Shown: positions 5,138 to 57,776, numbered from the whole stretch's first letter. The stretch is DNA of 60,932 bases, filler included, from 8 parts of 8 records of this genome joined end to end with filler, not necessarily neighbours in it, one strand, 5' to 3'. Made by a program: numbers and translations. Notes: generated by a model not told the origin, from the letters alone.

Positions 5138-5406
5138 CGTGAAGGGATGATCCGCCGGAAGCGCCATCCCTGGGGAATTATCCGTTTATTGCGGTTAATT
5201 GAGCCGGGAGACCATATACAGGCTAATCGGAAAAACAAGCTGTTGACAGTTCAGCAATCGAGCGCGACAATTGTTCCTGAGAGATGGAAACCACTGTGGG
5301 CTCCTTTTTGAGTTATTAAAATCCAAAAAGTTTCCGTTGATGCCCTTTTTTTTCAAGAGCAGGAAACGTCTTATCCAAGTTGTTATTTCAAAGAAAGGAT
5401 AGGTAA

Positions 5407-5811: not shown

Positions 5812-5828
5812 AGGGAGGGTTTCAAACC

Positions 5829-5928
5829 NNNNNNNNNNNNNNNNNNNNNNNNNNNNNNNNNNNNNNNNNNNNTTAATTAATTAANNNNNNNNNNNNNNNN
5901 NNNNNNNNNNNNNNNNNNNNNNNNNNNN
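5829..5928. other. Artificial contig-joining spacer
   Basis: N-run, TTAATTAATTAA (stops in all six frames), N-run; exactly 100 nt. Confidence 0.99.
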
Positions 5929-7185
5929 GGGGAAACAATTTCAGAAGCAGTAGACCAGGTCATCCAAACCAATCCGCAGGTTCGGTCGCAGATCCACAGC
6001 CGCCTTGCCCGGGACCAGGAAGTTGTCCAGGCCAAGGCCGGGTACTATCCCACCATTGACGGCTACGCCGCCGGTGGCTGGGCCGAGCACCAGGAACCTG
6101 AAGAAGAATCATTAAATCCATACGAGGCCGGATTTGAGCTGAGGCAGAACGTATTCAACGGTTTTGCGACAATGGGCGAGGTCGCCAGGCAGGAAGCCCG
6201 TGTCGACTCTGCCGCCTATTTGCTCAGAGGAACGGCCGAAGATCTCGCGCTCGAGGCGGCGCGGGTCTATATCAGCGTTCTGAGCAAGCAGGAACTGAAA
6301 ATGATCGCCGAAGAGAACCTCGAAATTCACCTGAGAATCGCCGATCAGATTAAGCTTCGCGGCGACTCCGGCGTCGGCAGCCAGGCGGACACCGAGCAGA
6401 TTCAGGGACGACTGGCGCTCGCCCAGTCCAATGTCGTCATCGCGGAGACCAACCTGCGCGACGCGCAGACCGAATACCTCGCGGTCGTCGGTCAGTTGCC
6501 TGGCGATCTGATTCCACCGGTGCCGCCCGATGACCTGATGCCGCCTTCACTCGAAGAAGCGACGCTGTCGGCAATATCGATGAACCCGATCCTGAAGTCG
6601 GCCGGTTCGGACCTGATGGCACGGGAGGAACAGCACGAGGTCTCGAAGGCCGCCTACTATCCAGTCCTCGATATCGAACTGGACCAGCGTTGGGACGACG
6701 ATATCAGCCGTACCGAGGGTAAACGTGATTACTGGATGGCGCTCGGCCGCGTACGCTACAACTTCTTCAACGGTTTCGCCGATCAGGCCCGTAAAGCGGA
6801 AACGCTCGAGTTGGTCAGCGAAGCGCGCGAAATCAAGAACAACACCGAACGACAGGTCGTCGAGTCCATGCGGCTGTCATGGATGGCCTACATGTCCGTC
6901 CTCGACCGGATCGAATACCTGGAGAACTATATAGCGGCAAGTACTGCAACCGCGCAGGCCTACGCCAAGCAGTTCGACATCGGCAAGCGTTCCCTGCTCG
7001 ATGTACTGGACGCAGAGGCCGAGGCGATCTCCGCCCGCGCCGACCTGATCGAAGCGGTCAACAACGGGCTCTATTCACAGTACCGTATTCTCAATGCCAC
7101 CGGCAGCCTGGTTCAGGCCTTTGGTCTGCAGTGGCCTGAAGAGGCAGCGGTAGAAGATGAGGAGAGCCTCGCGGACAACGGCTGA
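5929..7185 (+). CDS. lapE: TolC-family outer membrane channel, LapE/AggA-like (5'-partial)
   Basis: The frame is open from the contig edge (GETISEAVDQVIQTNP...AKAGYYPTID). It has two OEP repeats and QFDIGKRSLLDVLDAE, and lies next to lapG/lapD. Confidence 0.88.
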   Translation, partial: GETISEAVDQVIQTNPQVRSQIHSRLARDQEVVQAKAGYYPTIDGYAAGGWAEHQEPEEESLNPYEAGFELRQNVFNGFATMGEVARQEARVDSAAYLLRGTAEDLALEAARVYISVLSKQELKMIAEENLEIHLRIADQIKLRGDSGVGSQADTEQIQGRLALAQSNVVIAETNLRDAQTEYLAVVGQLPGDLIPPVPPDDLMPPSLEEATLSAISMNPILKSAGSDLMAREEQHEVSKAAYYPVLDIELDQRWDDDISRTEGKRDYWMALGRVRYNFFNGFADQARKAETLELVSEAREIKNNTERQVVESMRLSWMAYMSVLDRIEYLENYIAASTATAQAYAKQFDIGKRSLLDVLDAEAEAISARADLIEAVNNGLYSQYRILNATGSLVQAFGLQWPEEAAVEDEESLADNG

Positions 7186-7243
7186 TCATTCGTTGATCAG
7201 AAACGAAACGTATCGCTTTTCGAATCTTCCACGCTACTGACAG

Positions 7244-7280
7244 AAAAATAACCGCACCTTCCCGGTGCGGTTATTTTTTT
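7244..7280 (+). terminator. Rho-independent terminator, possibly bidirectional
   Basis: AAAAATAACCGCACC-TTCCC-GGTGCGGTTATTTTTTT forms a perfect stem with a T tract. Confidence 0.85.
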
Positions 7281-7331
7281 ATCTGATCTATTTCCCTGCT
7301 TCCCAAACCTTTTCTTGAATCAACTCGGATT

Positions 7332-8150
7332 ATGTTGTTCAATCAAATGAACAACAGGCATGATTTCAGTATGTTGCCAACCCGGCGCACAACCTCTGAA
7401 ACAGGAAGGTACGTTACCGCCATTTCATTTTCCACGTGTCGTGACAGGGTGAAACAGTTCAAACAGCACAGAGCGGCTCCGGTAACTGCAGTACGGCCGG
7501 CCTGGTTCCTGCCAGGAGCCGCGGTCTGCATAACGGTCTGCTTCATCCTGCTCGCCCAGGCACAGGACACATTCAGGCTCGACCCCACCCTCCTCGACAG
7601 GGTTGAAAAAGAACACGATCACTACGCCAGAAAGCGCCTCCTGGCGTGGCAGGAACTGATCAACAGCGCGCAGAACCTTGAAGAGTACCAGAAGCTGGTA
7701 GCGGTGAACGATTTTTTCAACCGCATTCAGTTCGTGTCCGATGAGCTGATGTGGAAGAAGGAGGATTACTGGGCAACACCGGTTGAGTTCCTCGTACGAG
7801 ATGGTGGAGACTGCGAGGATTTCTCAATCGCCAAATATTTCACCCTGAAAAAGATGGGGGTGGAAGAGAGCAGACTCAACATGACCTACGTCAAGGCTCT
7901 GGAGTTGAACCAGGCCCACATGGTCGTGACCTATTACGAACAACCGGAGAGTGAACCGCTGGTATTGGACAATCTCCAACCGGGAATACTCAGCGCGTCA
8001 AAGCGAACCGACCTGATGCCGGTATTCAGTTTCAACGGTAGCGGCCTGTGGCTTGCCAAGGAACGAAGCCGCGGTCGCAGAGTCGGCAACAGTGACCGCT
8101 ACAAACAATGGATGGATCTGCTGCAGCGGATGCCGGAAGGACTCAACTGA
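7332..8150 (+). CDS. lapG: LapG-like periplasmic transglutaminase-like cysteine protease (true start probably downstream of 7332)
   Basis: DYWATPVEFL, GDCEDFSIAKYFTL, QAHMVV and LVLDNL give a Cys-His-Asp triad and Ca-site motif; the gene lies immediately upstream of lapD. Confidence 0.92.
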   Translation: MLFNQMNNRHDFSMLPTRRTTSETGRYVTAISFSTCRDRVKQFKQHRAAPVTAVRPAWFLPGAAVCITVCFILLAQAQDTFRLDPTLLDRVEKEHDHYARKRLLAWQELINSAQNLEEYQKLVAVNDFFNRIQFVSDELMWKKEDYWATPVEFLVRDGGDCEDFSIAKYFTLKKMGVEESRLNMTYVKALELNQAHMVVTYYEQPESEPLVLDNLQPGILSASKRTDLMPVFSFNGSGLWLAKERSRGRRVGNSDRYKQWMDLLQRMPEGLN

Positions 8151-8159
8151 GGAGCAGTT

Positions 8160-10124
8160 ATGACACTTCACAGACAGTTGCTCATTTTCACCCTGGTTCT
8201 TTGTTTCTTTTTGTTCATCGGCGTCTGGGCCTACAAGCTGCAATCCACCCGGACCTTTCTCGAATACCAGCTCCAGGCGCATTCCCAGGACACTGCAACT
8301 TCGCTCGCCCTGTCCCTGTCCCCACTTGTCGCAGACGATGACCTGGCCGGCGTGGAAACAATGATGAACGCAATCTTCGATCGTGGCTATTACAAGGTCA
8401 TCACCTTCTCGAACGTCCAAGGAGAGGTTGTCTCCAACCGGGTGGCACCCCTGACCATCGAACAGGTACCCGACTGGTTCATCACGCTGCTGCCGCTCAC
8501 CGCTCCCGGCGGTGAATCCCTGATCATGGCAGGCTGGAAGCGCGCCGGGACAGTCTACGTCGAGAGTCATCCGGGGTACGCGTACCTGACCCTGTGGAAC
8601 ACCTTCACCCGGGTTCTCATTTATTTTCTCCTCACCGGGCTGATCGTCTTCATCCTCGGCGGAATTGCACTCAGGGTTATCCTCAAACCGCTGAGAAAGG
8701 TCGAACAGCAGGCGGAGGCGATCTGCCGGAAAGAATACGAGATTCAGCAGCAGATCCCAAGAACCCGCGAACTGAAAAGCGTCGTCACATCGATGAACAG
8801 GATGACCAGCTGGGTAAAGGAGAGGTTTGAGGAGCAGACGCTGATCGCCGAAAAGCTCCGAGCCAGCGCCTTCGGTGACCAGCTCACCGGCCTGAGCAAC
8901 CGCAGATTCCTGGAAAACCAGGTGGAAGCCGTCATGGGCGGCAGCCCCGAGATCGCCAAAGGACTGTTTTTGATCATTCACATCCGGCACCTGAACGAGA
9001 TAAACAAATCCAAGGGATACAGCGCCGGCGACCAGCTCCTCAAGCGCTGCTCCGAAATACTCAGCGAGAACCTGACCCCCTACCCGGGCCATACGATCTC
9101 ACGACTCGGCGGTGGTGATTTCGGTGTGTTCCTGCCCGATGCCGACAAGCAGGAAAGTGAACAGATCTCCTCTCTGCTCTCAGAGAAGCTGGCCGGCCTC
9201 TCCGTCGAGGAACTTGGCGTATCGAACGACATCAGTTCCATCGGCGGCGTCTACTATAACACCCCATGCAGTTTCACCCACCTGCTGGCCAAGACGGATA
9301 ACGCGTTGATCGGCTCCAAACACGAGGGGCCCAACAGCTGGAAGCTCGAACCGGCATACTGTGAAGCGGACGACCCGACCCAGGGCCGGGTATGGTGGAA
9401 AAAGACGCTCGAACAGTCGCTGGCCGACCGCGCCATCAATCTGTACGGCCAGCACGCCGTCACAACCGGCGACACGGAAGACGAGCTCCACCTGGAGATA
9501 TTCTCGCGGATAACCATCGATATCGACAATGAGGTAGCCGCCGGCGTGTTCATCCCGCTTGCCGAGCAGGCCGAGGTCATCGCCGAACTGGACCGCAAGG
9601 TTCTGGAGCTCGTATTCAACTCCTGCGGACTGTGGCACAATCTGCCGCTGGCCGTCAACCTCTCCGTCACATCACTGCAGGATCCGGGGTTCACGGACTG
9701 GCTCATCACAAGGCTCACTGCCGATGCCGGACAGATTCCGAAACTCAACTTCGAATTCTCGGAGTTCAACGTGATCAGGCAGATCGATCATGTACGGGAA
9801 TTCGGCGAGCGGATCAAAGCGTTAGGCCATGCCATCGGTATCGATCATTTCGGAAAGAGCTTCGGGAATTTCGGGTATCTGCAATCGTTGCAGCCCAGCT
9901 ATGTGAAGATTGATGCGACGTTTACCCGGGAGCTGGAGTCCGACAAGAGTGACGGCTATTTCTTCATCGGTGCACTGAACAGCGTCGCCCACAGTCTCGA
10001 CATCAAGGTGATTGCGGAGGGAGTCGAGACACCGCAGCAGCTGGCCCTGTTCAGGGAGTTGAAAGTCGACGGCTACCAGGGATACCTGGTCGAAGAACCC
10101 CGGCTGTTAACATCCCAGGTCTGA
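8160..10124 (+). CDS. lapD: LapD-like inside-out c-di-GMP receptor (TM-periplasmic-HAMP-degenerate GGDEF-degenerate EAL)
   Basis: MTLHRQL start, AHSQDTATSLALSL, AIFDRGYY, VPDWF and the GW loop (MAGWKRAG). The enzymatic domains are degenerate (RLGGGDF; EIFSR/DHFG). Confidence 0.92.
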   Translation: MTLHRQLLIFTLVLCFFLFIGVWAYKLQSTRTFLEYQLQAHSQDTATSLALSLSPLVADDDLAGVETMMNAIFDRGYYKVITFSNVQGEVVSNRVAPLTIEQVPDWFITLLPLTAPGGESLIMAGWKRAGTVYVESHPGYAYLTLWNTFTRVLIYFLLTGLIVFILGGIALRVILKPLRKVEQQAEAICRKEYEIQQQIPRTRELKSVVTSMNRMTSWVKERFEEQTLIAEKLRASAFGDQLTGLSNRRFLENQVEAVMGGSPEIAKGLFLIIHIRHLNEINKSKGYSAGDQLLKRCSEILSENLTPYPGHTISRLGGGDFGVFLPDADKQESEQISSLLSEKLAGLSVEELGVSNDISSIGGVYYNTPCSFTHLLAKTDNALIGSKHEGPNSWKLEPAYCEADDPTQGRVWWKKTLEQSLADRAINLYGQHAVTTGDTEDELHLEIFSRITIDIDNEVAAGVFIPLAEQAEVIAELDRKVLELVFNSCGLWHNLPLAVNLSVTSLQDPGFTDWLITRLTADAGQIPKLNFEFSEFNVIRQIDHVREFGERIKALGHAIGIDHFGKSFGNFGYLQSLQPSYVKIDATFTRELESDKSDGYFFIGALNSVAHSLDIKVIAEGVETPQQLALFRELKVDGYQGYLVEEPRLLTSQV

Positions 10125-41655: not shown

Positions 41656-44600
41656 GCCGACTCTGATTACATGATCTGATGATTTCCCTTCATCTCCATA
41701 GATAGCTGAGTTACCATACGAGTACCCTAGCATCGCCCCAAACCTGATCTCCTGCGCAACAGCATAGTCAATCCCTGTGATCACACCAGAGTATCCAAAG
41801 TCATAACCGGCGGCATCCGCTGTATTACCCTGCTCACCAAATCCACCAAAGACCTTTGCAAAAGCTGCCCAACTCATATAAGCAGTAGCATCTGTATCGT
41901 TTCCATTTTCGATAGAATCAAATGACTCTTCGAGTTCACCGGCGGATGCAATCCCGATTGCAGCAGTCGCTCCTGTACCACTGATTGATTTTCCAAATGC
42001 CGAAGAGAGATTTCCATGCCTGAACGAGGTGAACTGATTTCTCATTGCAGAGTTGGATTGCTGCACTACGACTGTGGAAATATTGGCTGAGATGTTTGTT
42101 ACAGCAGTAGGTTGCGCCTGAGTCATCGCTATATCCATCTCCTTATCACTCAAGTTTACCATTGTATCAAAGAAAGCATCCATCTCGGCTGGATGATCAG
42201 CGAGGGATTCATCCAGTATCAGTGCAATCTGTTTATTCGCAGGTACAGGCTTTGCTGCCTTTTCAAACGGTGTTCCAAAGGCAGCAGTAACAAGCAGCTG
42301 ATTATTTGCCGCATCCAGATTATATGTATAATCCAACACTCGAGAGTTGTCGACCAGATCAATATTACCCTCAAGAAGATTTGAAAGTGTGCCTGCCTGA
42401 ATCATAGTGTAAGTAGTCTCACTCTGTCCGCCATTACCATTGATTGTTACAGTAGCTCCAGCAAAGTCAGCAATTCCTGTAACGTTGATCCCAGACGCAC
42501 CACTATCTTCAATTACAAGCGCCAGCGAGTCTCCCGCAGACACAGTCAGATTACTTCCGAAATTAAGATTACCACCACTGGCCTGGAGTGTCCCACCATT
42601 ACCACCAGTCGTAACTGCCCCAGAGATAGTTCCGAACCCATTCAGAGTTCCACCCGAAGCAATAGATCCAATCGCTCCACCAAACGTACCATTATTCAGA
42701 GTCATAGTACCAGCAATTGCCGCAGGCGCACCGGTATGAATATGTGTACCAGCGAGAGAATAATTGCTGCCAGAATTAATATTAAATGCTCCAGCAGTTG
42801 TTATCTTACTTCCAGTATTTACATTCAAAGTGCCGTTTAGATTGAGATCACCATTGAGGTTTAATGCACCAGCACCAGCCGAGTCATAGGCACTACTTAC
42901 AGTCATGGTCGAACCACTGACAATATTGAGTTCGCCAGAACCAGCAGCACTCATATCGAGGAAACCATTCGAACCGGAAACAGCAAATGTACCTCCGGCA
43001 ATATTCAACGCTCCGGTTCCAGTCTTGGTCAAAGCTCCAGCTATAGATGCATTCTCCGAGATAGTCACCCCTGTTCCCTCAAGTGCTCCCGCAACCCCGT
43101 CAGCCACACTGAGAGTCTTGAGAGTGACTGTACCACCTGCAACATTATTTGTAATCTTACCACCGTCAGCAAAGGTTAATGAATCAATAGAGGTCGCCCC
43201 TGTAGCCCCGGCATCAATCTGGAGTGTGCCACCAAGATCAATGTCAGCAAAAGTTTTATTACCTGCACCTCCAAGAGTAAGGTTTTCAGTAGCATCAATA
43301 GCAGTTGTATTTACAATCTTTACAGGTCCAGTACCATCAAGGGTTACTGTCCCGCTATTGATAGCCAGAGAGTCAAGAGTTGCCAGTCCTGTACCATTAT
43401 TTGTAAAGCTTGTACCATCCTGCATAAGTATCCCGGCATCAAAGTTCTTTGCTCCTGTACCGGTCAGTCTCAGGTTATTATCAAGAAGCACCTGATTTGT
43501 AATCGTAGTCAGACCAGCTCCACCGATAACAGCAGCAGCTGTAAGGTCGAGATCTGTAATTGTTGTTGAACTGTTATTTGTGAGTGTGCCACCAAGATCA
43601 AGATCTGCAAGCGTTTTTGTTCCTGTACCATCAAGAACCAACTCTGTTCCTGCAGCAGCGGTAGTAGTGCCATTTACATTTGTTGTACTGTCACCTTCAA
43701 GGTATGCTGTTGCACCTGGGTCGAGAGTTATATTATTAATCACAGCGTTACCAGAGCCATTACTGATAATTTTAGAACCATCCCCCAGCTCTGCAGTACC
43801 ATCAATTCGTTTCTCACCAGCCCCAGCCAATGTAAGATCTTTTCCATCAGTAATATCAACATTCTCAAAAGTCTTTGAACCACTTCCATCCAGTTTAAAG
43901 TCTTTAACAATACCTGTAGTCCCAGAGAATACTGTAGCCCCATTGTTTACTAGTTCGGCATCATCCGTGGTAAGAGCAAGTACCGAGGTATCAAAGACTC
44001 CACCAGTCTGGATATGCTTCCCTCCAAGATTATACACAGCAGCAGTAAAATCATACCCAGTACTTATCGTGCCATTGTTTGTCAGCGTTCCTGCAATATC
44101 CGTTACACTTCCTAGGGTAACTACCCCTGTACCATCAACTGTAACAGCTTCTCCACCAGCAACACTTAGAGAATAGATATTGTTTGTACCGGCGTTTGCA
44201 GTAAGTTTTCCACCGTCAGCTATAGCCACCCCACCGTTGAGGTTTCTCGTTCCTGCACCGTTTAGAATAAGAGTATTACCAATGTCTACATTATTGAGTA
44301 CCGTTACCGTTCCAGCCCCACCGACAGTAGCACTTGCACCACTAACACTGAGTGTAGTAAGAGTAAGTGTATTTGCTGACTGAGTATGTGTCCCAGCAAG
44401 GTTATAATTTGTAATAGCGCCATTGTACCCAGACGAGATCACCCCATTATTCTCCAGCGTAGTCCCTGCACCTGTAGTAAACGACGTTACAGTAGTTGTA
44501 CCACTTCCACTGATAATTCCGGTTTCACCAGCAGCTATTGTAATATTTGAAATAGTTGCACTTGCATTATTGGTAAGAGTTCTAGTATCCTCGATGGTGA

Positions 44601-47600
44601 GTCCACCATTAAAGAATGTATTCCCAGTGCCGTTTAGAGTAATTGCATTTACTCCAAGCGTCTGAGCATTGCTTATTGTTGTAGTACCAGTACCACTCAG
44701 GATAAGCCCAGCATTTCTATTTAAAGTAGTAACTCCTAGAGTAGAGTTATTAATAAGACTTCCAGATATAGTCAGAGTACCAGCAGCAAACTCACCCGCA
44801 CCTCCAAGAGTCAAAGTATCACCAGAAGTTATAGTAACCGAGGTCATGGTAAACTCCTCTGTCACATCAGTATTGGTTATTGTTGCATTCTCCGTCACCT
44901 GCAGGTCAGCTATTGTAGTCGCACCAGTACCATTATCAGTCAACGCCATACCAGCGGTATTCAGATTAACAACTCCAAATCCCTTTGCCCCGGCTCCATC
45001 AAGCGTAAGGTTGTTATCCAAGTCAAGAGCACCAGTAACTGATATCCCTTTAGAGCCTTCAAGTTTTGCATCCCCGTCAAGATCAAGCGTTGCCAGCGTC
45101 ATATCAGAAGCATTGTTGTTAAGAGTACCAGCAATCGTCAAGTTAGTTATAGTTTTACCACCACCAGACAGATTGAGTTTTCCACCAGCACCAATATCAC
45201 CATCAGTTACAGCAACACTCCCAACACCATCAAGATCTGCCTCGTCTCCATCACCGATATTCAAAGTTGTTATATTGGCAACTCCAGAACTGTTAGAAAC
45301 CGAAACAGCTTTACCATCATCAATACTCACTGTTCCAAAGTTCTTAGTACCAGTACCGGCAATTTCAAAATTATTATCAACATCAAGTGCATTGGTAATT
45401 CCAATCGTCCCACTACCACTGATTACCGAGTCCCCGGTAAGGTCAAGAGCGGCAATAGTATTTGTGCCAACACCGTTTACCTCCAAAGTACCAGCTAAAT
45501 TCATATCACCAGTACTCGAAAAATTCTCAGTACCGGAATGAGTATGCTTTCCAGAGATAGTATAAGTACCAGAATTTGTAAATGATCCAGAAGTAGTCAG
45601 GTTGACATTATCATTGACCATAATTCCAGTAGCATCAATAGTCATACTATCAGTAACAGAGGCAGCAGTTGTACCGGAGAGCGTACCATACTTGCCACCG
45701 TCAACCTTAAGCACCGCTATGTTAACAGACGTTGTATTGGTGGTATTTAGAATACCGCCAGCATTACTGGCACCATTGAGCTTGAGCTCTCCAGTCGCAG
45801 ACTCAGCAGTAAATGTCCCGCCAGTAAAGGTATGTGTCGCATTCAAGGTATAGGTATCCCCGTCAGCAACAACAAAGTCACCACCAGTCACAAGCGTAGC
45901 ATTATTTATCAGACTACCTCCGGACGAGGTATCAAGCCCATTAGTAAAGACAACCCCTGCAGAATTATTGAGCACAAGGTTATGATCAAGGTCTACCTGA
46001 TTTGAAACAGTAATCTGCTGATTACCGGCCAACCCGGCATTCCCATCAAGATCAAGAGTGCCTATCGTCATCGCAGCAGCATTGTTTGTCAGCGTACCTG
46101 CAGTTGTCAGGCTGTTAATTGATTTAGCGCCTCCCGATAGAGTCAGCGAACCAACATTTCCGATATCGACATTAGTCATACTCACGCCCCCAGCCCCATC
46201 AATCTCACCGGAGATATTATCACTAATATTGAGGTTGGTAATACTAGTCAGAGCAGTATTATCACTATCTGTTATTTTTTTAGAGTTGGTAGCCATATTT
46301 ACAGTACCGAAAGTTGTCGTCCCCTCGTTACTGACAATAAGATTATTGTCCAACTCAAGCGCATTCAGGTTGGAGCTTATCGCCCCAGTACCGGCTAGTT
46401 CACTGTCCCCGTCAAGATCAATTCCTTTTATAATCATACTGGTGGTATTATTAGTGATCTTCCCATCAAGGGTAGCCACACAGTTGATCATCTTCGTGCC
46501 AGCCCCGGATAATATCAGCTCACCATCAATATCTGCACTATCAGTAATCGTAATTCCACCGTCACCTGTAAGAGTACCAACATTTCCAGATTCCACAGTG
46601 AGGTGTTTGATACCGGTTATTGCGGTATCATCATTATCGGTAATCGTTTTATCTTCGGTGATATTTACCGTGCCATTGATATTGATACCCTTAGTTCCGC
46701 TGAGGGTAAGGTTGTGATCAAGGTTGAAGTCGTTGGTAATATTAATTCCCTGCCCAGACGCTGTTAGTGTAGAATTTCCAGTAAGATCAAGGGTAGCAAT
46801 TGTCAATGCCCCAGCGTTATTGGTTACTGTACCGGCAGAGTCAAGATTGCTGATCGTCTTTGTCGCAGTACCGCTGAGTATCAGGTTACTGCCGGTATTA
46901 AGGGTAGCGTTCGTGATAGTACCCATATTACCATCAGCCAGTGTTGTGCTTATGCCGTTTGCAACACTGTAGTTTGTATAGGTCTGTGAACTTCCCATAG
47001 TTACTGTTGTCTGATCAGTATTAATATTGATCGTTCCAATATTGCCTGCGGTAGCAAGCTGGTTGACACCAGTAGAGTTTACCGTAATTGCGCCAGAGGT
47101 TGCCCCAATTCCATTTGCAGTAAAGCTACCAGCACCTTGTGAGGTCAGACTTCCGGTATTAGAAGTGACAAAATCAACGCTATCAATTTTTGTAGTATTA
47201 TCATTACCTGCAGTCAGATTAATGCCATTATATAATACCACATTAGCAGTACCGCCTGTTGCAACAAGTGAAGAGTTCAACACTGAGTTAGCTGTCTGGG
47301 CAATAAAACTATTTGTTCCAGATCCGAAGTCAATATCACCCGTTGCAGTCCCGCCAGAGTTTGAGTAAATAATATCATCGCCGCCTGCAAGACTGATATT
47401 CCCAGTAAGGGTTGATCCTGACTCAAGGACGATGGTATTTGCTGTTCCATCACCGTTATAGCCGTTTGCACTAAAGTCTACAGCTGTATTTACAGCGACA
47501 TTCATATCATTTAACGTAGCAGTCCCAGTAACAGTAGTATCCTCGTTCAAATACAGATGCCCTGTCAAGTTACCCGCAAATCCAAGTATGTTTGTACCAG

Positions 47601-50600
47601 TAGAACCTACAGTAATATCCCCGCTTGTTGCCCCAATTCCATTGGCAGTAAAGTTCCCTGCTCCCTGTGTAGTCAAACTTCCAGTATTTGAAGTGGCAAA
47701 ATTAACACTATCAATTTTTGTTGGGTTTCCATTCCCTGCGGTCAGCTTAATACCATTATATAATACAATATTAGCCGTACCGCCTGTTGCAAAAAGTGAA
47801 GAATTCAATACCGAATCGGTTGTCTGAGCAATAAAACTATTTGTTCCTGTTCCAAAATTAATATCGCCTGTCGCTGTCCCACCAGAGTTTGAGTAAATAA
47901 TATCATCCCCGCCAGCAAGATTTATATCACCAGTAAGAGTTGCTCCCGCTTCAAGAACGATAGTATTTGCAGTATCATCACCTCTATAGCTATTTGCGCT
48001 AAAGCTTACAGCTTTATTTTCAGCAACATTCATATTATTCAGCGTAGCAGTACCGGTAACGGTTGTATTCTCATTGAGATAGATATGACCCGTATTATTA
48101 CCAGTGAAATTAAGGCTATTGGATGTAGTCGAGTTGACCACAATTTGCCCGCTTGATGCTCCGATAGCACTTGCTGAAACATTCCCAGAGCCATTCAATG
48201 ACAAGACACCTGAGACATTGATGGTTCCTGCAGCAGTGAAGTTTCCAGTACCTGAATGGGTGTGTGTACCAGAGAGATTATAGGTGCTCCCTGTAGCTAT
48301 ATTGACAACCCCATCTGTGGTTATTGCCTGGGTCACATTGAGTATTGCAGTCCCGTCAACTGGTGCGAGGGTATCATTTCCACCACTACCGTCAGGCACA
48401 ACTGCGCTATTGAATCCTGCAGCACCTACGTAAAGATCACTAAAAGTATTTGTAGCTCCACTCAGCGTAGTTGTACCGCCAGCCATATAGCCGTCCCACT
48501 TCCCGGTAGAACTGGATTCGATATTATCAGCCAGCGTAATACTGAACCCCGAGTCAATCGCCCCAAGGTTAACTTTCTTACTCACAGCATCCTTAGCATA
48601 CCCAAACGTAAGGTATGACGTAGCGTTATTATCCGAATCAGAATTAATTATTCCACCACTGAGGCTTGCTCCATCTAAAACATGATAGACATTGCTCTCT
48701 CCCGAACCACTACTACCAGAGCCTGAGAGTAGCGCATACGAACCAGTTCCCCCTGCAGTCAGACTTCCTGAAATATGCCCCGCAGTTGCACTTCCAGAAG
48801 TATTCAATGCATGGGCACCTGCACCAGTAGTCGCTATTGAGCCACCATCTTCAACAACAATAAGACTAGTATCACCAACAATTATACCATGCGATCCCGC
48901 ACCTGTTGTTCCACCAACATTTCCAGTCGAAATACTTCCAGACAGAGCGATTGTATTCTTACTGCCAGAAGAGATACCATGCGCATCATCACCAAGGGTA
49001 GTAATTGACCCGTCAATATCAAAGAGTCCATTTCCAGAAGCAGTAATCCCATCAGAATATTTCCCCTGAGTAGCTATCGAGCCAGTACTTGTTATCGTAT
49101 ACTCATTGTTAACCCCAGAGTTAACCCCAAACGCCCCATAGCTCGAATTGCTTGCAGTTCCTTCTGTTGTTAAAGCCCCAGCAATAGTTATACTTGCATT
49201 ATTATTAACTCTTATTGCGGTAGACATGTCCTCTGTTTGGCTCAAGCCAGTGGTCGAGACAGTAGCATTATTACTAACGACAATCGTATTGTCCGCCACC
49301 CCTCCAACATTACCAATAGTACCAGCATCACTGGAAGTACCAAAAGCCCGAATACCGTATGAATTATTTTCTGTAGTCTTCACCAACGCAACATTCGTCC
49401 CATCACCAACGGTAACAGTATTACCATTACTAGCCAAATATATACCATGAGCAGAAGCACCAGCAGTAGTAATACTCCCTTCAGCATTAACAGTATTACT
49501 ACTTGAATTCACATAAATCCCAACTGAACCCTCCGCACCGCTAGGTGTAACCCCATCATCCATAAGCCCTGTGGTAATCACACTACCAGATTTGAGTGTC
49601 AGTGTATTGCTGTCAGCTCCAAGATATACCGCATTAGCACTGCCCCCTTGAGTCTTGATGCTTGCTCCAGAGTACGCCGTGATTTCATTATGATGCCCTC
49701 TGTTATCAGCAGAAGTCCAGACCGCATCCGCATCCGTACCTTTGGTAAGTATACTCCCTTTAATATCCAAAAGGTTGTATGCATCCTGAAATGCAACCCC
49801 ATACCCATCAGAGCCTTCAGTAGTGATTGACCCATTGGTATTAATAAGCAGCTGGTTATTAGTATTAGAAATGTACCCAATTCCAGAAGCACCAGAAACA
49901 ACAACATCGCCATCAAGAGCTACAAAATTATTATTACCTGCAGCCAGTATAGCTCTAACATTACTTCCAGCAGTAGTAATTGTTGCTCCATCCCTGATAT
50001 CGATAACATTTGACGCACCAGAAACATTTATACCCTGATACGTACCACTCACTGTGCCATCACCAACCAGTCCTGCAGCAGCGTTTGTCGAGGCATTACC
50101 ACTTACTGATATACTATATGAAGTATTACCAACAGTTTTTATCTCACCTGTAGCTGCAACAACAACTTCGTTACCGACTCCATCCAGACGAATACCGCTA
50201 ACATCACTTACTCCTGTGGAATCTCCATTCTCATCAACCCCGGTAAGCACCTTGCCAGCCAGTTCTACCTTGGTATAAGCGTTCCCGTGCAAAGCATAAG
50301 ATCCCGTCCCCTGAGTTCTAACCGTAGCTCCGTTGCTAATGGTAATATCATCATGACTTCCCAAGTGTAACGCTTTACTTCCAGCACCTTCAGTTATAAC
50401 ATTGCCGCCTATCGTAACACTTGCATTATAACTCGGCTCGATAGCATGAGAGCCATCACCTGTAGTCTTTACTGTCGATCCAGCAGAAGTAGTAATAGTG
50501 TTAGATGCTCCTCCGACAATACCAGTTGTAGTCCCTCCCGGATCACCAGCATTTAAAGTAATAGCATTCACAGAAGCACCCGAAGTCGTAACCACACCAT

Positions 50601-51846
50601 TACCTGTGATATTAATTGTATTCCCAGTTCCACCTGCAACAATTGCTTTAGCGCTTGCTGTCCCTGAAACAGTCCCATCAATATTTGCAGTACTACCACC
50701 ATCACGAAGATATAAACTAATACTACCAGCAGTAGTTATAGACCCACCATCGTATACGTTTACAGTGTTACCTGTCTCTGACATATAGACAGAGACAAAG
50801 TTATCAGAATTAACAGTCCCATATATACTAACTGTATTATCAATAGCACCAGCTTCTGAAATAATTGCCGCAGCATTCCCAGTACCAGAACTGTTAACAA
50901 GTGTTCCACTGCCGACAGTAACAGAATTACTATTTCCTGCAATGTATACTCCTCTGCTGTTAGTCCCACTTGACCAGACACTAGCGCCCTCATACGCAGA
51001 ACCTCTATTTATAGTAAGGGTATTATTGCTTGTAAGCTTTATCGCATTTGAATTATCCGAACTAACTGAAACGACACCATGCCCAGTAGTCCCTCCAGTC
51101 AGGTTGACCGCCGCCCCATCAAGCAGGTTCAGAGCATTGACACCACTTGAACCAGCAAGAACAAACACATCACCGCTAATACTACTAGTACCTCCAACAA
51201 AAAAGTCTCTTGCATTCCTATTGGCAAATCCATTATCTGCCCCAACTTTTAGAGTCCCACTCTCTCCAATATTGAGACCGTTTGTAAAGGTTTTAGCACC
51301 AGTTCCTCCAACATAGGCATAATTATTCACATACATCTGATCATTAACAGTCGTCGTAGCAGTGCCAAACAGCGCAGAGTTATTTCCGGTTATCGATATA
51401 CTTGTAATGTCAGACGCAAGCTCAGCATTATTGTAAAAATTAGTATTCCCCTTAAACTCTATATTTGTAATACTGGTATTTATACCTTCATTAACAACCG
51501 TCGCTCCAATCTCATTGACCAATGTTCCAATCTTAAATGGCGAGCTATTCCCATCGTTAATTGTAACAGAAATGCTCCCATTAGTAATCAAACTCCCACT
51601 AGAAATATCTATCGCTTCGTTCATGGTAATAGAAACAGCATTCTGACCTGGGTCAGCATTTAGATTGAACTGAATATCATCACCAGTAGCCAAAACCCCT
51701 CTTGCGGTGTTAATTTCAGAGGCACTTCCAACCCAAGAGGTAGTAATGGCGACATCATTAGCCATACAGGTTTCAGCAGCAACCAACAAAAGCAATAATA
51801 AAACCACATAAATACTATTATTGCGACAGATATTATTATACTTCAT
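41656..51846 (-). CDS. Giant type Va autotransporter/adhesin, >3390 aa, beta-barrel truncated by the contig end
   Basis: Signal peptide from the ATG at 51846 (MKYNN...VVLLLLLLVAAETCMA) and a G/T/N/S-rich beta-helix-like passenger. The barrel starts WAAFAKVFGGFGEQ...GYDFGYSGVITGIDY...GAMLGYSY. Confidence 0.88.
47060..48175 (-). repeat. 528-bp (176-aa) tandem duplication inside the autotransporter passenger
   Basis: CCAGAGTTTGAGTAAATAATATCATC occurs at 47354 and 47882, and TGCCCCAATTCC at 47101 and 47629; both pairs are 528 nt apart. The protein repeat is LAGGDDIIYSNSGGTATGDI.FG.GTNSFIAQT. Confidence 0.9.
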
Positions 51847-52564
51847 ATTCAAAATAAATTTCCTGTTAAAATGCCCCATTTGCCTACAACTTATGCTTTC
51901 CCCACCAGTAAACATCATATTTATTATTGCCACACAAGACAACTTGCTTCCAATCCGCACTGAAGCCTACCATTTCAATACCAAAAGACAAAATAATATC
52001 AAAAAAACTTAAGACGATTTTGACATTATCAAAGTACTTTCTTACATTTCTACTCTTATTGCTGTAAACTACTAACGTATACAGTAATCATGTCCTATAA
52101 TTTAATGCAATATATATTAACTTTTAAATCCGAATCTGTCAATGTATTTATACACTATCTCAAAACAACATCTGTTATACCCTATGACAAAGCAACTTAC
52201 AAAGATAAAGACATCACCTGTATTCTTTTCTACTAAAGTATAAATCCCATATAACTAAGCCCTGTCAACCTTAACGTCCGATAATAACACAAACAATCTT
52301 AACAGTGCAAACCGAAGATACCAATATCGACGTCTTACAAGCACTTAGAAAGACTCTGTTCAAAAGAATACAAACAGGCACATGAGAAAACATAAGGCAG
52401 GTAGCCATTATTTACAGATCATTACTATTTAAATACAGTGAAAATATACTTACACAAGCACGCTATCACTTCAATAGTATTGAAAATTATTATGTTATAA
52501 CTAAAATCAGATTAAGTAAATTTCTCAGTTACATACACTCTTCACAAGAAGAAAAGGAAATTCA

Positions 52565-53586: not shown

Positions 53587-53686
53587 NNNNNNNNNNNNNN
53601 NNNNNNNNNNNNNNNNNNNNNNNNNNNNNNTTAATTAATTAANNNNNNNNNNNNNNNNNNNNNNNNNNNNNNNNNNNNNNNNNNNN
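53587..53686. other. Artificial contig-joining spacer
   Basis: Same 100-nt linker. Confidence 0.99.
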
Positions 53687-55647
53687 CAGTCTGCCCATGT
53701 CATCTCCGTGGGCGGCGATAGCCCGGATCGCATCGTCGCCATATTTTTTTATAAACGCTTTGGCGACGTCGTCGCCGACGGCTTTGACAAAGACGCCCAA
53801 CCCCTTGGCCAGGCTCTTTATGCTTGATATGCCGCCTGTAGCCAGCTGCTCTACGGCCCGACAATTGATAGCCCGCCTTTGTACAGGCCGCTGAGAAACT
53901 GCGAGCCGGTAGACTCTTGGATCATACCGGCAACCGTGTCGCGTGTGACGTCGGCCCCATCGGATAACTGATAGATGGGGTCATGCTCATTGATGGGTAT
54001 GTATTCACCTCTGATCGCATTTCTCAGTTTTTGGCTGGATGAAGCAAAGGGCTTCATCCCGCCGCCTATTATGCTTTCAAAAACTGAACCGACAGACGCC
54101 TCGCCCGGGTGTTCCTCGGCGTAGGCTTGTTTTTCCGCCATGAGCGCATTGTATGCTTTCTCATCGTGCATAAGCTCGGCGTAGATAATAAAGCCGTTTA
54201 TTTCTTTATTCGTATAGCCCAGTTCTTTTAATCCTTGCTTGATGTCGCCAATTGACAAATTGACCTTGTCAACCTTTAATGCCGTTTCGAGATCATTCAG
54301 GCCTTGCTCGATGATTTTCATTTTTTTATCTTCCAGATACGGTATGTTAAGCGTTTCCGCCCTCAGCTGTTCAGGAAGGTCTTCCAGCTTGGAAGCCATG
54401 TTTTCTTGATAGATATTGTTCTTGAGATCAGTTATTTGAAGATCAAGAATGCCTTGAGTATTTTCATATTCCGCTTTCTCGGCTTCCTTTGCGGCGATTT
54501 CTGCCCGCTTTTGTGCAATCTGCGCCTGTATTTCTGTACGCGTCACTCCGTCGAGTTCGCCGGTTTTTGCCGCCAGAGCATCTTTTGTTTCAAGATTTGA
54601 AAGCTCGATATTTAAGACTTCCAGTTCGGTTCGAGCGTCCTCGAATTTTTGCTCGTAATAATCCTTCGTGCTCTCGCTGGCCTTTATCTGGTTTTCGTAT
54701 ATTACAGAATCCGGTACAGTCACACCCGGTGCAAGAGTCATGTAATCATTGTTTTGCTCTGCTCGGGCATAAAAGTCGTTGAGTATTTTTTGGCGGCGTA
54801 TGATTTCGTTTTGGGCTTCCGACAAAGTCAGGTCCGGATCTTCGAATGACGATATGAATGCCGCCTGATCGTGCAGCCAGTTGTTTTCTTCGGTCATGTG
54901 GTTGAGAATGGATGGGCTCATGGTGTTTTGTACAATGTTGTTGTTATCTTCGATGGCTTGTTGAAGCTCGGTGTAATCATATTGACCGTATTCATCGGAC
55001 ATTTTATCGTCGAACATAGCCGCGCTGTAAGCCGCTTCGTTTTCAAACAAAGACCTGTATTCCGCATCTATGTTTGCGTACTGAACGGCGTCCTGAAGAC
55101 TGCGCAGGTTCGCACGGATCGACGCAATCTGGCTGTCGGCTTCCTCGTCCCCGAGAATCTCCCGATAAGCCTCGAAATTGTTAATCAAGTACGCGGCCGA
55201 TTCCTGCTGCTGCATGTAATAATCGGTTAATGTGGCGGCATAATCGGCGGCGTCCCCATGATACGTGTGCTGATAATCTCCTACGTACCGACTGTCCGAG
55301 GACTGAGCGAGTTGATTATTAAGTTTCTTGTAATCATCCAGCTTTTGCTGGAAAATTTCGGGGTCGTCAACGCTGTGCGGGTCATAGCTATAACCGCTGT
55401 AGAGCATGGCGTACGGGTCAAGAGCTCCGCCCGGCAGCGTATAGTAGGATGTCGAGTTGGGGATTTGCCGGGGCTTGTCCGGTTCCGGGTCCGGGGCGGG
55501 GGATGGAGCGGCCGGCGTTTCCGCCTTGGGCGTTTGAGTAGCGGCCGCTTTCTTTTTCTCTTCAAATTCCTTGACTTTCTGTTGCGTGTAGTATTGCGCC
55601 AGCGCGGGGTCCACCGTTATGTAATAGCTATCCGGATCTTTTCCCAT
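53687..55647 (-). CDS. Large helical/coiled-coil protein, phage-associated or polymorphic-toxin-like (frameshift near 53858; 3'-truncated)
   Basis: 602-aa ORF. A 1-nt shift continues it to the contig end as VEQLATGGISSIKSLAKGLGVFVKAVGDDVAKAFIKKYGDDAIRAIAAHGDDMGRL. Confidence 0.65.
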
Positions 55648-55690
55648 GTGAATGATCACGCCTTTCGTTTGATGTCATGCCGTTGCGGCA

Positions 55691-55912
55691 TTAAAGGTGC
55701 CCGAGGCGGTCCAGCCGCCGCATGGCCCGCATCCGGGAGGCCGACGCCGCGTCGGGCGTGGCGCAAAACGGGCAGGGCAGCCGCTCCTTCAGGCAGTAGA
55801 TATCCGATAGAGCGCGGCAGGCCGGGTTGCCGGCCTTATTGATGTAAAACGCGAAGCAGTTGACGCGGCTGTTTTCGCGTCCCGGTAAAATCGTCAGCTT
55901 TTTTTTAGGCAT
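55691..55912 (-). CDS. Small Cys-rich protein (73 aa), Firmicutes-phage-like
   Basis: An AAAGGCGG RBS-like sequence precedes MPKKK...NCFAFY...CRALSDIYCLKERLPCPFC. Confidence 0.65.
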   Translation of the reverse strand: MPKKKLTILPGRENSRVNCFAFYINKAGNPACRALSDIYCLKERLPCPFCATPDAASASRMRAMRRLDRLGHL

Positions 55913-55992
55913 AGCCTTATTTACCGCCTTTCTTTTGTGTTTGTGACAGATTGATGTTGACGAGCCGGTTGGCCTTGGGGCAGCGCTAGGCG

Positions 55993-56454
55993 CTAGCCGC
56001 CGCGGTGCGCGCCTTTTTTGGGGAAGGCGACGGCGCGGTGGTCGCACCCCAATAGCTCGGCGCGCTCTGTAAGGCTCAGCTCCAGGAACTTGTCCTCCAG
56101 GCAGTCGCTGCAGAGCGTGGTCCCGTTTTCCCACTCAAAGACTTCGTCGCCCTCATAGATTTCGTGTCCGCAGCCGGCTGTTATGTAGTTGGCGTCGTCG
56201 GCCGGCTCGACGGGCGGCTCCGGCACATACATGGCGTTCTCCTCCTTGGCGTTGAAATAAAAGTCCTCCGGGTCAAACGAGACCTTGTTCCAAGGGCGGG
56301 AGCCTGTCCGCTTTTCATAAGCCGTGCAGGCGTCCCTCGGGCAGCCGCGGGAGCGGTACATTATGAGCGTGTAGTCGCACGTGTTTGTATAGGTGCTGAA
56401 AAAGCGGCAGTCCGGCCGGCATTTTACGGCTTCGGCATCGGCAAGTGCTTTCAT
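55993..56454 (-). CDS. Cys-rich two-module protein, phage-like (internal RBS/ATG at 56232)
   Basis: AAGGAGG RBS before MKALAD. Module 1 is CRPDCRFF...CDY...GCP..C..Y; module 2 is GCGHEIYEGD...LCSDCL. Confidence 0.7.
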   Translation of the reverse strand: MKALADAEAVKCRPDCRFFSTYTNTCDYTLIMYRSRGCPRDACTAYEKRTGSRPWNKVSFDPEDFYFNAKEENAMYVPEPPVEPADDANYITAGCGHEIYEGDEVFEWENGTTLCSDCLEDKFLELSLTERAELLGCDHRAVAFPKKGAHRGG

Positions 56455-56517
56455 ATCGTTCATCCTCCTTGTGTTTGAACGCATTCAAACGAAATAAATA
56501 CAAATTACAGTGAATTG

Positions 56518-56529
56518 CTACAAAATTGT
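56518..56529. promoter_or_regulatory. Operator copy 3 (CTACAAAATTGT)
   Basis: Exact reverse complement of ACAATTTTGTAG at 56696 and 56726; ends 2 nt before the -35 of the rightward promoter. Confidence 0.7.
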
Positions 56530-56531
56530 GG

Positions 56532-56560
56532 TTGACTGCGCGCCCGACATGAAGTATATT
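56532..56560 (+). promoter_or_regulatory. Rightward sigmaA promoter, towards the XRE repressor
   Basis: TTGACT-N17-TATATT. Confidence 0.65.
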
Positions 56561-56695
56561 AAGTGGGATGCATGGACAGGGGAAAAGAGCGCAAAATGCT
56601 CTGAATTCAGGGAAAACTATGGATTCCACCGTGTGGTGTATCTGTCTTGGCTCAAAAACCGTTCTTTTTTTATGACGGAATGGACACGAATAAGA

Positions 56696-56737
56696 ACAAT
56701 TTTGTAGGTGTGTCCAATAATACATACAATTTTGTAG
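56696..56737. promoter_or_regulatory. Operator copies 1 and 2 (ACAATTTTGTAG direct repeat, 30-nt spacing)
   Basis: Identical 12-mers at 56696-56707 and 56726-56737; imperfect palindrome TACAA-TT-TTGTA. Confidence 0.75.
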
Positions 56738-56745
56738 TATGTCAA
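56717..56745 (-). promoter_or_regulatory. Leftward sigmaA promoter for the Cys-rich/large-ORF operon
   Basis: The minus strand reads TTGACA-N17-TATTAT, with an operator inside the spacer. Confidence 0.75.
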
Positions 56746-56790
56746 TGAAAGGGACAGTTTATATCACACTTTGGCAGAGGTGACAAAAAC

Positions 56791-57189
56791 ATGTACGACC
56801 GGTTGGAGAAATTGCTGAAAGAACGCGGCATTACCCCTTACAGGCTTTCCAAGGACCTTGGAATTTCGCAGAGCAGCCTGAGCGAATGGAAAAGGGGAAA
56901 CAGCATACCAAAGTATGAGAGGCTTATAAAAATTGCCGGTTATTTCAACGTCCCGGTCGGGTACCTGACGGGCAGGGAAGAAGAAGCGAAAAAGCCCGAG
57001 GCAACAAACCCCGAGCTTTTGGACGAGCTGATGGCGGCGGTAAAAGAAAAGCTCGACGCCCCGGAATGGAGCGACGAGCAAGCCAAGCAAAATCTTGTAT
57101 TATTCAGTTCTCTGACGCCGGAGAAGAGGCTGGAGGCCCTGCGTTATCTTCGCTATCTTGTAAACCGGCAAGAAGAAGAAACACAATAG
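56791..57189 (+). CDS. XRE/CI-like helix-turn-helix repressor (no S24 peptidase domain)
   Basis: GAGGTG RBS; MYDRLEKLLKERGITPYRLSKDLGISQSSLSEWKRGNSIPK..LIKIAGYFNVPVGYL. Confidence 0.92.
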   Translation: MYDRLEKLLKERGITPYRLSKDLGISQSSLSEWKRGNSIPKYERLIKIAGYFNVPVGYLTGREEEAKKPEATNPELLDELMAAVKEKLDAPEWSDEQAKQNLVLFSSLTPEKRLEALRYLRYLVNRQEEETQ

Positions 57190-57238
57190 ACGTATCGCCG
57201 AGCGAACGCTGCAGCGATATAAATTCCTGTTCTTCCAA
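57104..57238 (-). CDS. Putative 44-aa small protein antisense to the repressor 3' end
   Basis: GGAAGGAGG RBS 9 nt before a TTG start; MEEQEFISLQRSLGDTSIVFLLLAGLQDSEDNAGPPASSPASEN; own promoter at 57292-57320. Confidence 0.55.
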   Translation of the reverse strand: MEEQEFISLQRSLGDTSIVFLLLAGLQDSEDNAGPPASSPASEN

Positions 57239-57291
57239 ACGTGACCCCCTCCTTCCACGTCAGGCGGGCCTGAATGATGAGAGATGGTATA

Positions 57292-57320
57292 AATATAACA
57301 TAAAAACCTTAAAATGTAAA
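57292..57320 (-). promoter_or_regulatory. SigmaA promoter with extended -10, firing antisense into the repressor gene
   Basis: The minus strand reads TTTACA-N17-TATATT, with TGn immediately before the -10. Confidence 0.55.
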
Positions 57321-57776
57321 TAAGAAAGTAGACATAAAAAATTCGACGCCCGTCGTGCAAAAGGAGCACGCCGGGTGTCTTGTTTACTTAAAAGCACATG
57401 AACTCGCCTTGAGATGATTGGAAAAACGGATAACGTGTGATAAAGTATGGAAAAATGTCATTCGATATCGACATAAATGAGAATATATGATATTAACGGG
57501 AAAACACGAGGTAGACATAAAACGGGGCGGTGGATTATAGAACGCGCGCGGAAATTATAGAATTAGCTAAAAAAACGGTGTTTGTTTTTGGTGTATATCC
57601 TCTATTTTGAAAATAATATATGACATGCGGCATAGAACGGCGGTATTGCGCGGTTCGCGCTGGTATGATATGCTAATTAAGGAAACCGTCAACCTTAACG
57701 ACACGTCGCTCTGTCAAATCTACTGCGCGTGACAGAGCCTCACAAAAGCCGGCGCAGCGGCGGAAAGAGAAATATT

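Follow-up and report, generated by a model that had tools for sequence, protein, structure and literature searches.

The CI/Cro pair of phage lambda is the general model of an immunity switch, coliphages 186 and P2 have promoters that lie face to face, and in lambda the OOP antisense RNA opposes the 3' end of cII. Toxin release can be coupled to lysis, as with the colicin operons and the holin/endolysin-dependent export of large clostridial toxins, and the concept of polymorphic toxin systems reportedly goes back to Zhang et al. in 2012. Two papers (PMC5576092, PMC9424270) describe orphan toxin-immunity cassettes for polymorphic toxins of the CdiA, Rhs, and LXG types, and a passage in a third (PMC5512222) argues that polyvalent proteins are packaged and injected with phage or plasmid DNA. 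The locus considered here belongs to a 60.9-kb stretch of DNA, the window, in which eight contigs are joined by linkers of the form N44-ttaattaattaa-N44; it takes up the initial 3.6 kb of the eighth contig (53687-60932). In this locus an XRE/CI-type repressor gene stands near dfx and diverges from three genes on the minus strand, two small cysteine-rich open reading frames (ORFs), Cys1 and Cys2, and a long ORF that we call the effector. It is probably a polymorphic toxin locus of the chromosome, gated by a repressor and assembled on an older regulatory module of the host, and it does not appear to be a member of the MuF, LXG, or S8 types, nor is it a prophage, a gene transfer agent (GTA), or a tailocin. 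A first-pass annotation had read the same DNA as a stripped-down prophage module; its gene layout and its operator and promoter pattern stand, as do the toxin-like cargo, the missing integrase, and the conservation that it expected, whereas its left edge, its single long frame, and the prophage unit, GTA, or tailocin do not.

What identifies the effector as a toxin is the pattern among its relatives. Seven of these emerged among 8000 scored candidates of a word-seeded search through 5.8 billion proteins, and all four genomic effector loci, on contigs from a one-genome-per-species set, belong to Sporobacter. The relatives keep the N-terminal two thirds of the protein and then diverge completely, ending in TNT (P0003), GH-E (P0006), or CHAP (P0007) domains, with CdiA_C (L003) and WHH/Colicin-DNase (P0028) as further C-termini. 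A complete 4.6-Mb Sporobacter chromosome (G001, locus L001) has the gene order of the window, namely a zinc-ribbon gene, an HD_5 gene, dfx, repressor, Cys1, Cys2, and toxin, the module's neighbours being 81-97% identical between the two, and a 91-aa ORF follows directly downstream of its toxin. Within 15 kb this genome has nine matches to the effector profile, two of them full genes (the second N-terminally truncated) and seven of them orphans whose match is confined to the final ~40 profile positions (~462-505). Ankyrin and Endonuclea_NS_2 ORFs lie among these cassettes, and a Mutator transposase gene stands at the end of the array. Such an arrangement is typical of polymorphic toxin loci that have a recombination handle. 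Orphan fragments and an ankyrin ORF also occur in a paralogous locus, L002; in both loci a small ORF directly adjoins the toxin gene (L001 12378-12653, L002 12551-12850), and ankyrin ORFs sit behind orphans. Because a shared N-terminal part is combined with swapped C-termini and is followed by small ORFs and seven orphan cassettes, we take the effector to be a polymorphic toxin. The effectors of the window and L001 are only 52-60% identical, whereas their repressors, Cys1, Cys2, and dfx are 93-95% identical, and divergence confined in this way to the effector fits cassette exchange. The toxin-like cargo wired directly to a switch in the first-pass annotation is thus borne out, its homologues being polymorphic toxins and no replication or cro-type gene lying between.

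The effector is a Sporobacter affair, while the genes in front of it are not. The window, L001, L004, and L036 share dfx and a repressor gene diverging from Cys1, Cys2, and a gene with the effector's N-terminal domain (N-domain); L036, from an S. termitidis assembly, shows the full Sporobacter pattern, with the third gene running off the contig, and in L004 FemAB-type, AzlC/AzlD, and PucR-type genes come after the third gene. A third gene after Cys2 is present in all four Sporobacter loci and in none elsewhere. L032 and L033 carry dfx and the repressor gene diverging from Cys1-Cys2, then a convergent SPFH gene, with PP-loop and rplM genes near by; L031 has the trio without dfx, then a convergent PP-loop gene; the repressor-Cys1-Cys2 trio of L046 ends at a Trypsin_2/SLH gene; and in L034 and L035 the Cys1-Cys2 pair lies beside XdhC. 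Among 22 metagenome loci with Cys1, Cys2 is directly behind it in 15 and a repressor homologue is present in 3, with the effector in none, and the neighbours scanned include FtsH, TilS, HPRT, DnaB, PGK/TIM, GGDEF, and SLH-protease genes. A Cys1 match occurs in 30 of the 401 genomes of G001's family (10 near full length and 20 of one half, mostly the C-terminal one), and homologues of similar length number 18. Against five loci, the repressor has a ratio of nonsynonymous to synonymous divergence (dN/dS) of 0.09-0.17, Cys1 of 0.19-0.30, Cys2 of 0.11-0.29, and dfx of 0.05-0.13, with dS saturated for the most distant pairs, and the divergence of the module tracks that of its housekeeping neighbours. 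Given purifying selection and a housekeeping setting, repressor-Cys1-Cys2 is a conserved host module, vertically inherited in Sporobacter and in more distant genomes of the family, and since more distant genomes and metagenomes have the trio without the toxin, the toxin is a Sporobacter-specific addition to it. The bacteria that carry this module in their core chromosome are a group of anaerobes from guts and digesters. Two checks that the first-pass annotation had proposed point the same way: dN/dS across homologous loci (0.09-0.30) shows a module that is conserved and not decaying, and the synteny next to dfx recurs in the four Sporobacter loci and in two more distant genomes. The prophage that it saw in the unit as a whole gains no support, since the trio stands among tilS, hprT, ftsH, dnaB, rplM, and pgk without a toxin. 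A link of the module to the function of dfx was considered and rejected, the trio also being found away from dfx (L031 and the tilS/ftsH loci).

Further copies of the effector's N-terminal parts occur outside this arrangement. Two genes of the S. termitidis assembly are almost alike over their N-terminal ~100 residues (L003 8288-11008 and L036 1-1225); the L036 copy lies behind Cys2, and the L003 copy, the CdiA_C toxin, lies by the carbon monoxide dehydrogenase/acetyl-CoA synthase (CODH/ACS) genes and has no switch beside it. In L004 (9698-11260, plus strand), P0030, P0032, and P0033 this helical N-domain is joined to CHAP or SLT cell-wall hydrolases; the linkers in these fusions are repeats of the ADPGLLEAQ / VDPALAEAQ type, and one copy, VDPALAQYY, stands at the very N-terminus of the window's effector.

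Table 1. Features of the locus in window coordinates (aa, amino acids; HTH, helix-turn-helix).
Feature	Position	Strand	Remarks
Artificial contig junction (N44 + ttaattaattaa + N44)	53587..53686	none	53687 is the contig start
Effector continuation, second frame	53687..53867	-	cut by the contig end; start of handle and GDD-repeat region
Effector main frame, 598 aa from ATG 55647 (602 aa from GTG 55659)	53851..55647	-	stop at 53851-53853
Cys2, 73 aa	55691..55912	-	invariant C19, C32, C40, C47; basic C-terminal tail
Cys1, 153 aa	55993..56454	-	two Cys-rich halves, 9 conserved Cys/His positions
Operator-like O3 (CTACAAAATTGT)	56518..56529	+	3 nt upstream of the P_R -35
Promoter-like P_R, TTGACT-17-TATATT, 10/12	56532->56560	+	consensus scan; toward the repressor gene
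Operator-like O1	56696..56707	-	just downstream of the P_L -10
Operator-like O2	56726..56737	-	between P_L -35 and -10; holds the perfect palindrome TACAAAATTGTA
Promoter-like P_L, TTGACA-17-TATTAT, 11/12	56745->56717	-	consensus scan; toward Cys1-Cys2-effector
XRE/CI-type repressor, 132 aa	56791-57189	+	HTH in residues 1-66, helical C-terminal half
44-aa ORF, TTG start, GGAGG 8-9 nt upstream	57104..57238	-	convergent with the repressor gene, overlaps its last 86 nt
Promoter-like TTTACA-17-TATATT with TG	57320->57292	-	upstream of the 44-aa ORF, in a conserved block

The switch is laid out as the first-pass annotation had it, with the XRE repressor diverging from three genes on one strand (Table 1). 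The repressor matches HTH_3 (1e-12) and Phage_CI_repr (5e-7) in a Pfam/NCBIfam scan, and family scans found no S24 peptidase domain in it. The operator-like sequence CTACAAAATTGT has exactly three copies, at 56518 (+), 56696 (-), and 56726 (-); a fourth match in the window, with 1 mismatch, sits on another contig, and none of 100 shuffles of the window gave the observed 4 matches at ≤1 mismatch. The hexamers of P_L and P_R are kept in L001 and L004, and against L004, where the proteins are only 66-74% identical and which carries a fourth operator copy, hexamers and operators show no changes, though the intervening sequence has diverged. Such conservation amounts to a phylogenetic footprint, at the level of pattern and not as proof of binding, and it is at that level that the operators and promoters described as intact, three exact sites and two conserved promoter-like sites, may be called so. 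P_L and P_R face each other; the predicted leaders are ~225 nt (repressor, from P_R) and ~255 nt (Cys1, from P_L), and the predicted transcripts would overlap by ~140 nt. Cys2 and the effector are separated by 43 nt without a terminator-like site. A CI-type repressor with apparent repeated operators at divergent promoters, a feature of temperate-phage immunity, can be recognised here from the sequence.

Several elements of such an immunity region were sought beside this switch without success. As had been stated, no cro-like HTH or replication gene lies between the switch and the large ORF; Cys1, Cys2, and the large ORF have neither an HTH nor any Pfam/NCBIfam family above cut-off, and the family scans gave no Ant (antirepressor) match in Cys1 or Cys2. 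Between the repressor and dfx there is no integrase, ImmA, or att-like repeat, only repeats of 12-18 nt, again in agreement with the earlier account. The stretch contains no tRNA and gives no Rfam match at E ≤ 0.1.

A further element, the 44-aa antisense ORF, is absent from that account. An ORF of 41-44 aa with the motif EFxxLQxxLGDTSIV is present in all nine repressor-homologue loci examined (the window, L001, L004, L036, L032, L033, L031, L046, and L051, with L055 left out). Sixteen codons lie outside the overlap; of the seven that differ there between the window and L004, three do so synonymously, and the ORF looks translated. The spacer between the repressor and dfx, 540 nt long, is conserved in blocks, with a mean column identity of 83%. 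Beyond the antisense unit, positions 57330-57776 are block-conserved even against the diverged L004 (TTGACAG...ATATCATACC, CGCGCAATACCGCCGTT), and this part probably serves dfx regulation or encodes another small transcript. A 12-nt direct repeat without mismatch, GTAGACATAAAA, also stands in the spacer at 57328 and 57511; as an att scar it was rejected.

The two Cys-rich ORFs, both confirmed at the lengths given in Table 1, occur as a unit, with Cys2 directly behind Cys1 wherever it is found. The N-terminal half of Cys1 has C13, C17, C27, C39, and C44, and its C-terminal half has a CxH...CxxC zinc-ribbon-like fold followed by two helices. The structural model of Cys1 is poor (pLDDT 56.5) and confident only for residues ~88-140, the zinc-ribbon-like C-half; a Foldseek search with it found nothing, and the best ESM Atlas scores, 0.78 for Cys1 and 0.82 for Cys2, lie below 0.9 and are leads only. 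Our guess would be that the two are small metal-binding regulators or partners.

The effector gene of the window is interrupted and incomplete. Its homologues begin at ATG 55647, and from the N-terminus the protein consists of the DPALA motif, a Pro/Ala linker, the helical N-domain (~residues 95-300), a coiled-coil insert specific to the window, and a conserved central region with the recombination handle at its end. The first-pass annotation had assigned it a single ORF of >650 aa; one frame yields 598-602 aa, a frame change follows near 53.86 kb, and since two frames lead to the contig end, the larger figure is only the distance to that end. The piece in the second frame is 60% identical to residues 515-569 of the L001 toxin and also resembles the N-termini of two L001 orphan cassettes, and the contigs of related strains stay in frame across the break. 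An intact effector has a leaderless N-terminus, the N-domain, the central region, the ~40-residue handle, GDD repeats, and a variable toxin or muralytic CHAP domain. The N-domain model (residues 94-300; AF2 pLDDT 89.3) consists of long helices in tandem three-helix bundles. Searches of PDB and BFVD with Foldseek had no hit at E ≤ 0.001; a wide fold search returned spectrin-type three-helix bundles with a best Z of 10.9, less than helical models attain through a common arrangement of helices; and a PDB sequence search with the effector profile found none.

Position 53687, which had been taken as the left limit of the locus, is a contig start with the linker adjoining it, so no biological boundary lies there, and what we say of DNA to its left rests on the loci of relatives. 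A sequencing run containing 93% of the stretch's words has a 566-nt contig whose end likewise falls at exactly 53687, where two variant contigs branch off; these resemble paralogous cassette handles, not phage DNA, and agree with orphan cassettes sharing a handle in the window's organism too. A repeated handle leads to branching and ended contigs in short-read assembly, as seen at this position, and the break in the window's effector gene is most probably due to it.

If the locus is a repressor-gated toxin locus, the repressor bound to O1 and O2 over P_L would keep the Cys1-Cys2-effector operon off, and O3 beside the P_R -35 would let it regulate its own gene. Convergent transcription and the antisense ORF may sharpen the decision. 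Upon de-repression, part of the population would make Cys1, Cys2, the toxin, and its immunity protein, while cassette exchange at the ~40-residue handle would change the toxin. The effector backbone carried by this system is probably phage-derived.

How much of the locus came from phages is the point at which the nearest alternative parts company. On that account the module is the relic of a temperate-phage immunity region (lysogeny/early region), domesticated, fixed in an ancestor of these genera, and kept as a host switch, with the toxin as a phage cargo that a later deletion brought alongside; it overlaps with the account given above and differs mainly in the origin of the module, and we regard it as possible, though unlikely. 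The best PHROG matches of the repressor, like its Phage_CI_repr match, are to phage repressor/regulator families (phrog_8, phrog_4, and phrog_3). Residues 73-129 of Cys1, in its C-half, match phrog_4331 (3e-7), a family that stands between an Ant/regulator gene and a RecT/DnaD/DnaC module in viral contig L037, and a short ORF like the N-half of Cys1 is found in viral contig L038 among helicase, recombination directionality factor (RDF), primase, and integrase genes, so that Cys1-half-like ORFs occur in the early regions of both. The viral matches to the Cys1 halves are, however, weak (38-58% identity over 24-61 residues), and XRE repressors and zinc ribbons are common among host genes. A tblastn search with Cys1 against phage records gave no match, and the single match to Cys2 in viral contigs, of 12 residues, was not used.

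The effector adds to the phage side of this balance through the kinship of its central region with giant phage proteins. A full-library profile search with its conserved part found 66 proteins, 14 of them at ≤ 1e-10. The N-domain (profile positions ~86-205) recurs in fusions to CHAP/SLT hydrolases with ADPGLLEAQ-type repeats, and positions ~250-505 recur in the N-terminal part of proteins of 2-3.5 thousand residues. Pfam families were found in 9 of the 19 proteins scanned, LPD1/3/38, MuF_C, and PBECR3 in the large ones and CHAP, SLT, and WHH in the smaller, and of the 11 scanned against PHROGs, 9 match phrog_22978. The effector itself has no match in phage records (tblastn), plasmids, viral contigs, or metagenome contigs; in phages, P0035 has no match and P0046 only two unannotated fragments. 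Directly upstream of the paralogous toxin with orphan cassettes in L002 lies a remnant of ~5 kb (4546-9872) with genes for a large terminase, a truncated major head protein, a CHAP endolysin, a holin-like ORF, and a 303-aa Q/A-rich ORF; because it has neither a portal nor a tail gene, it is a prophage remnant only. From these sequence relationships a phage origin of the effector backbone is plausible, as is phage ancestry of some parts of the locus.

Against the idea that the switch itself descends from a resident phage stands the company it keeps. Integrase/excisionase, replication, and structural genes are absent from the window contig, L001, L004, L031-L036, L043-L048, and L057, and capsid, tail, sheath, baseplate, and portal genes lie beside the switch in none of the loci examined. 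Att-like repeats and a tRNA were not found, and the module, under purifying selection, has diverged in step with its housekeeping neighbours. The absence of an integrase, which the first-pass annotation had noted for the window contig, extends to the other loci examined, and the same want of capsid, tail, portal, and replication genes leaves the GTA-, tailocin-, or particle-like unit that it proposed without support.

A bolder combination, which we consider quite improbable, would make the repressor, antisense ORF, facing promoters, and Cys1-Cys2 an anciently domesticated phage immunity cassette that now acts as a bistable host switch and gates a new leaderless delivery route, marked by the N-domain and the DPALA/ADPGLLEAQ motifs and common to toxins and CHAP/SLT hydrolases. 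Release by such a route might occur by hitch-hiking on phage particles or through switch-triggered lysis of a subpopulation.

As to whether the toxin leaves the cell at all, a less probable alternative, which we think improbable on the whole, is an intracellular conflict module of the abortive-infection or addiction kind, in which phage attack or stress would lift the repression, the effector would kill or arrest its own producer, and the downstream ORFs would be antitoxins. The maximum 19-residue Kyte-Doolittle value of the effector is 0.82; it has no signal peptide or transmembrane (TM) segment, and none of Cys1, Cys2, and the effector has a hydrophobic segment. Pfam gives the effector no LXG match, and no Phage_Mu_F match at E ≤ 0.01. 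In the three related Sporobacter genomes G001-G003, the core of a type VII secretion system (T7SS) was not found: EssC scored no higher than 119 bits where the cut-off is 778, and there was no YukC. All three genomes have weak WXG100-like N-termini on frames of 430-710 aa (for example G002:C2:1275686-1275925), with WXG100 borderline in one. XRE control is common in defence and toxin-antitoxin loci. The backbone of the effector is akin to proteins that a passage in PMC5512222 connects with phage-host conflict. Opposed to an intracellular role are the seven orphan cassettes with a common handle and the swapped nuclease and NADase domains, which a passage in PMC5576092 treats as a hallmark of exported interbacterial toxins, together with the N-domain relatives fused to CHAP/SLT hydrolases, enzymes that act outside the membrane.

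Several of these points, with others from the window itself, weigh against our reading of the locus as an exported-toxin system. No secretion system can be assigned, and with no signal peptide in the effector, and no EssC above the cut-off and no YukC in the three related genomes, an intracellular role is conceivable. The small ORFs behind the toxins are putative immunity genes by position only, and Cys1 and Cys2 may be unconnected with the toxin. The window contig ends before the C-terminal toxin domain and before any immunity gene. Its frame change rests on one contig, of depth 3.9, which is possibly the window's own source, and the local copy of the effector may be a pseudogene or an assembly error.

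That a complete prophage or a GTA/tailocin cluster lies to the left, with the window as its immunity end, is very improbable: the contig is cut inside a large gene and one paralogue (L002) adjoins phage genes, but these amount to the ~5-kb remnant already described, the branch contigs at 53687 look like cassette handles, the third gene of L004 gives way to the ordinary genes named above, and the 11 kb left of the toxin start in L001, a complete chromosome with neighbours 92-97% identical, where the first-pass annotation's own refuting case would place an ordinary prophage, consist of toxin and orphan cassettes and ankyrin and nuclease ORFs, an array ending in the Mutator transposase.

One observation from elsewhere in the window concerns its composition. 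The previous contig contains, at 41656-51960 on the minus strand, a 3450-aa ORF with repeats rich in Gly/Thr/Asn/Ser, whose C-terminus resembles an autotransporter barrel by eye; its GC content is 39-46%, against roughly 50-60% on most other contigs. A PDB sequence search with its last 300 aa found nothing. An autotransporter-like barrel would be odd for the monoderm Sporobacter, so the bin may be mixed.

If the locus is the repressor-gated toxin system that we favour, it represents a new polymorphic toxin family from understudied strict anaerobes, with N-terminal and central modules outside the curated families, and it shows in nature how a toxin gene can be recruited behind a host operon that was already in place. 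The question of how a leaderless toxin leaves monoderm cells without a T7SS becomes testable with it. The compact, conserved cassette of three operators, convergent promoters, and an antisense ORF would lend itself to dissection as a minimal bistable switch. For annotation, the locus counsels caution, since at the edge of a contig a CI-type repressor beside a large ORF of no known family does not by itself indicate a prophage.

Set beside the systems with which we began, the switch resembles those of temperate phages in its CI-type HTH repressor, three palindromic operators at promoters, divergent genes, and an antisense unit at the 3' end of the regulator. In this last respect the locus resembles lambda OOP, although the antisense unit here looks translated. 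The locus differs from phage switches in having no cro-type HTH, S24 autocleavage domain, antirepressor, or integrase/excisionase, and in that its switch is a conserved host locus. With lysis-coupled release it shares a repressor-controlled leaderless toxin with a putative immunity gene, and the L002 paralogue lies behind an endolysin and a holin-like gene; unlike those systems, the dfx-linked locus has no lysis or holin gene, and its repressor is not of the LexA type.

The toxin has partial counterparts in three described groups. As far as passages in PMC5576092 describe them, the MuF toxins of temperate Firmicutes phages are similar in coming from Firmicutes, in being leaderless with variable C-termini and a small downstream ORF, and in their link to prophages, paralleled here by the remnant in L002; the effector differs in that it has no MuF domain, does not lie downstream of a portal gene, and has its dfx-linked copies in the host chromosome without packaging genes. 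The polyvalent proteins, treated in a passage of PMC5512222, and phrog_22978 are akin by profile, through their N-terminal part, to effector positions ~250-505, but the effector, of ~0.8 thousand residues, has one effector domain, its dfx locus has no virion or conjugation genes, and the window's copy has no PHROG match at E ≤ 0.01. The S8 polymorphic toxin system (S8-PTS), as PMC9424270 presents it, was set aside, being another kind of system that uses a signal peptide together with an S8 peptidase. The titles and abstracts found in the literature contain no description of the N-domain family or of the switch, the searches not having been aimed at Sporobacter by name. The closest comparison is with the polymorphic toxins at large. 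From these the effector departs in N-terminal and central parts without any above-cut-off match in Pfam, NCBIfam, or PHROG, in lacking a signal peptide and any LXG, MuF, Rhs, VENN, or S8-peptidase partner, and in being the third cistron behind two Cys-rich genes and a CI-type switch. It agrees with them in a conserved N-terminal part joined to unrelated C-terminal toxins, in the small ORFs downstream, in 5'-truncated orphans that share the handle, and in a toxin gene far more diverged than its neighbours.

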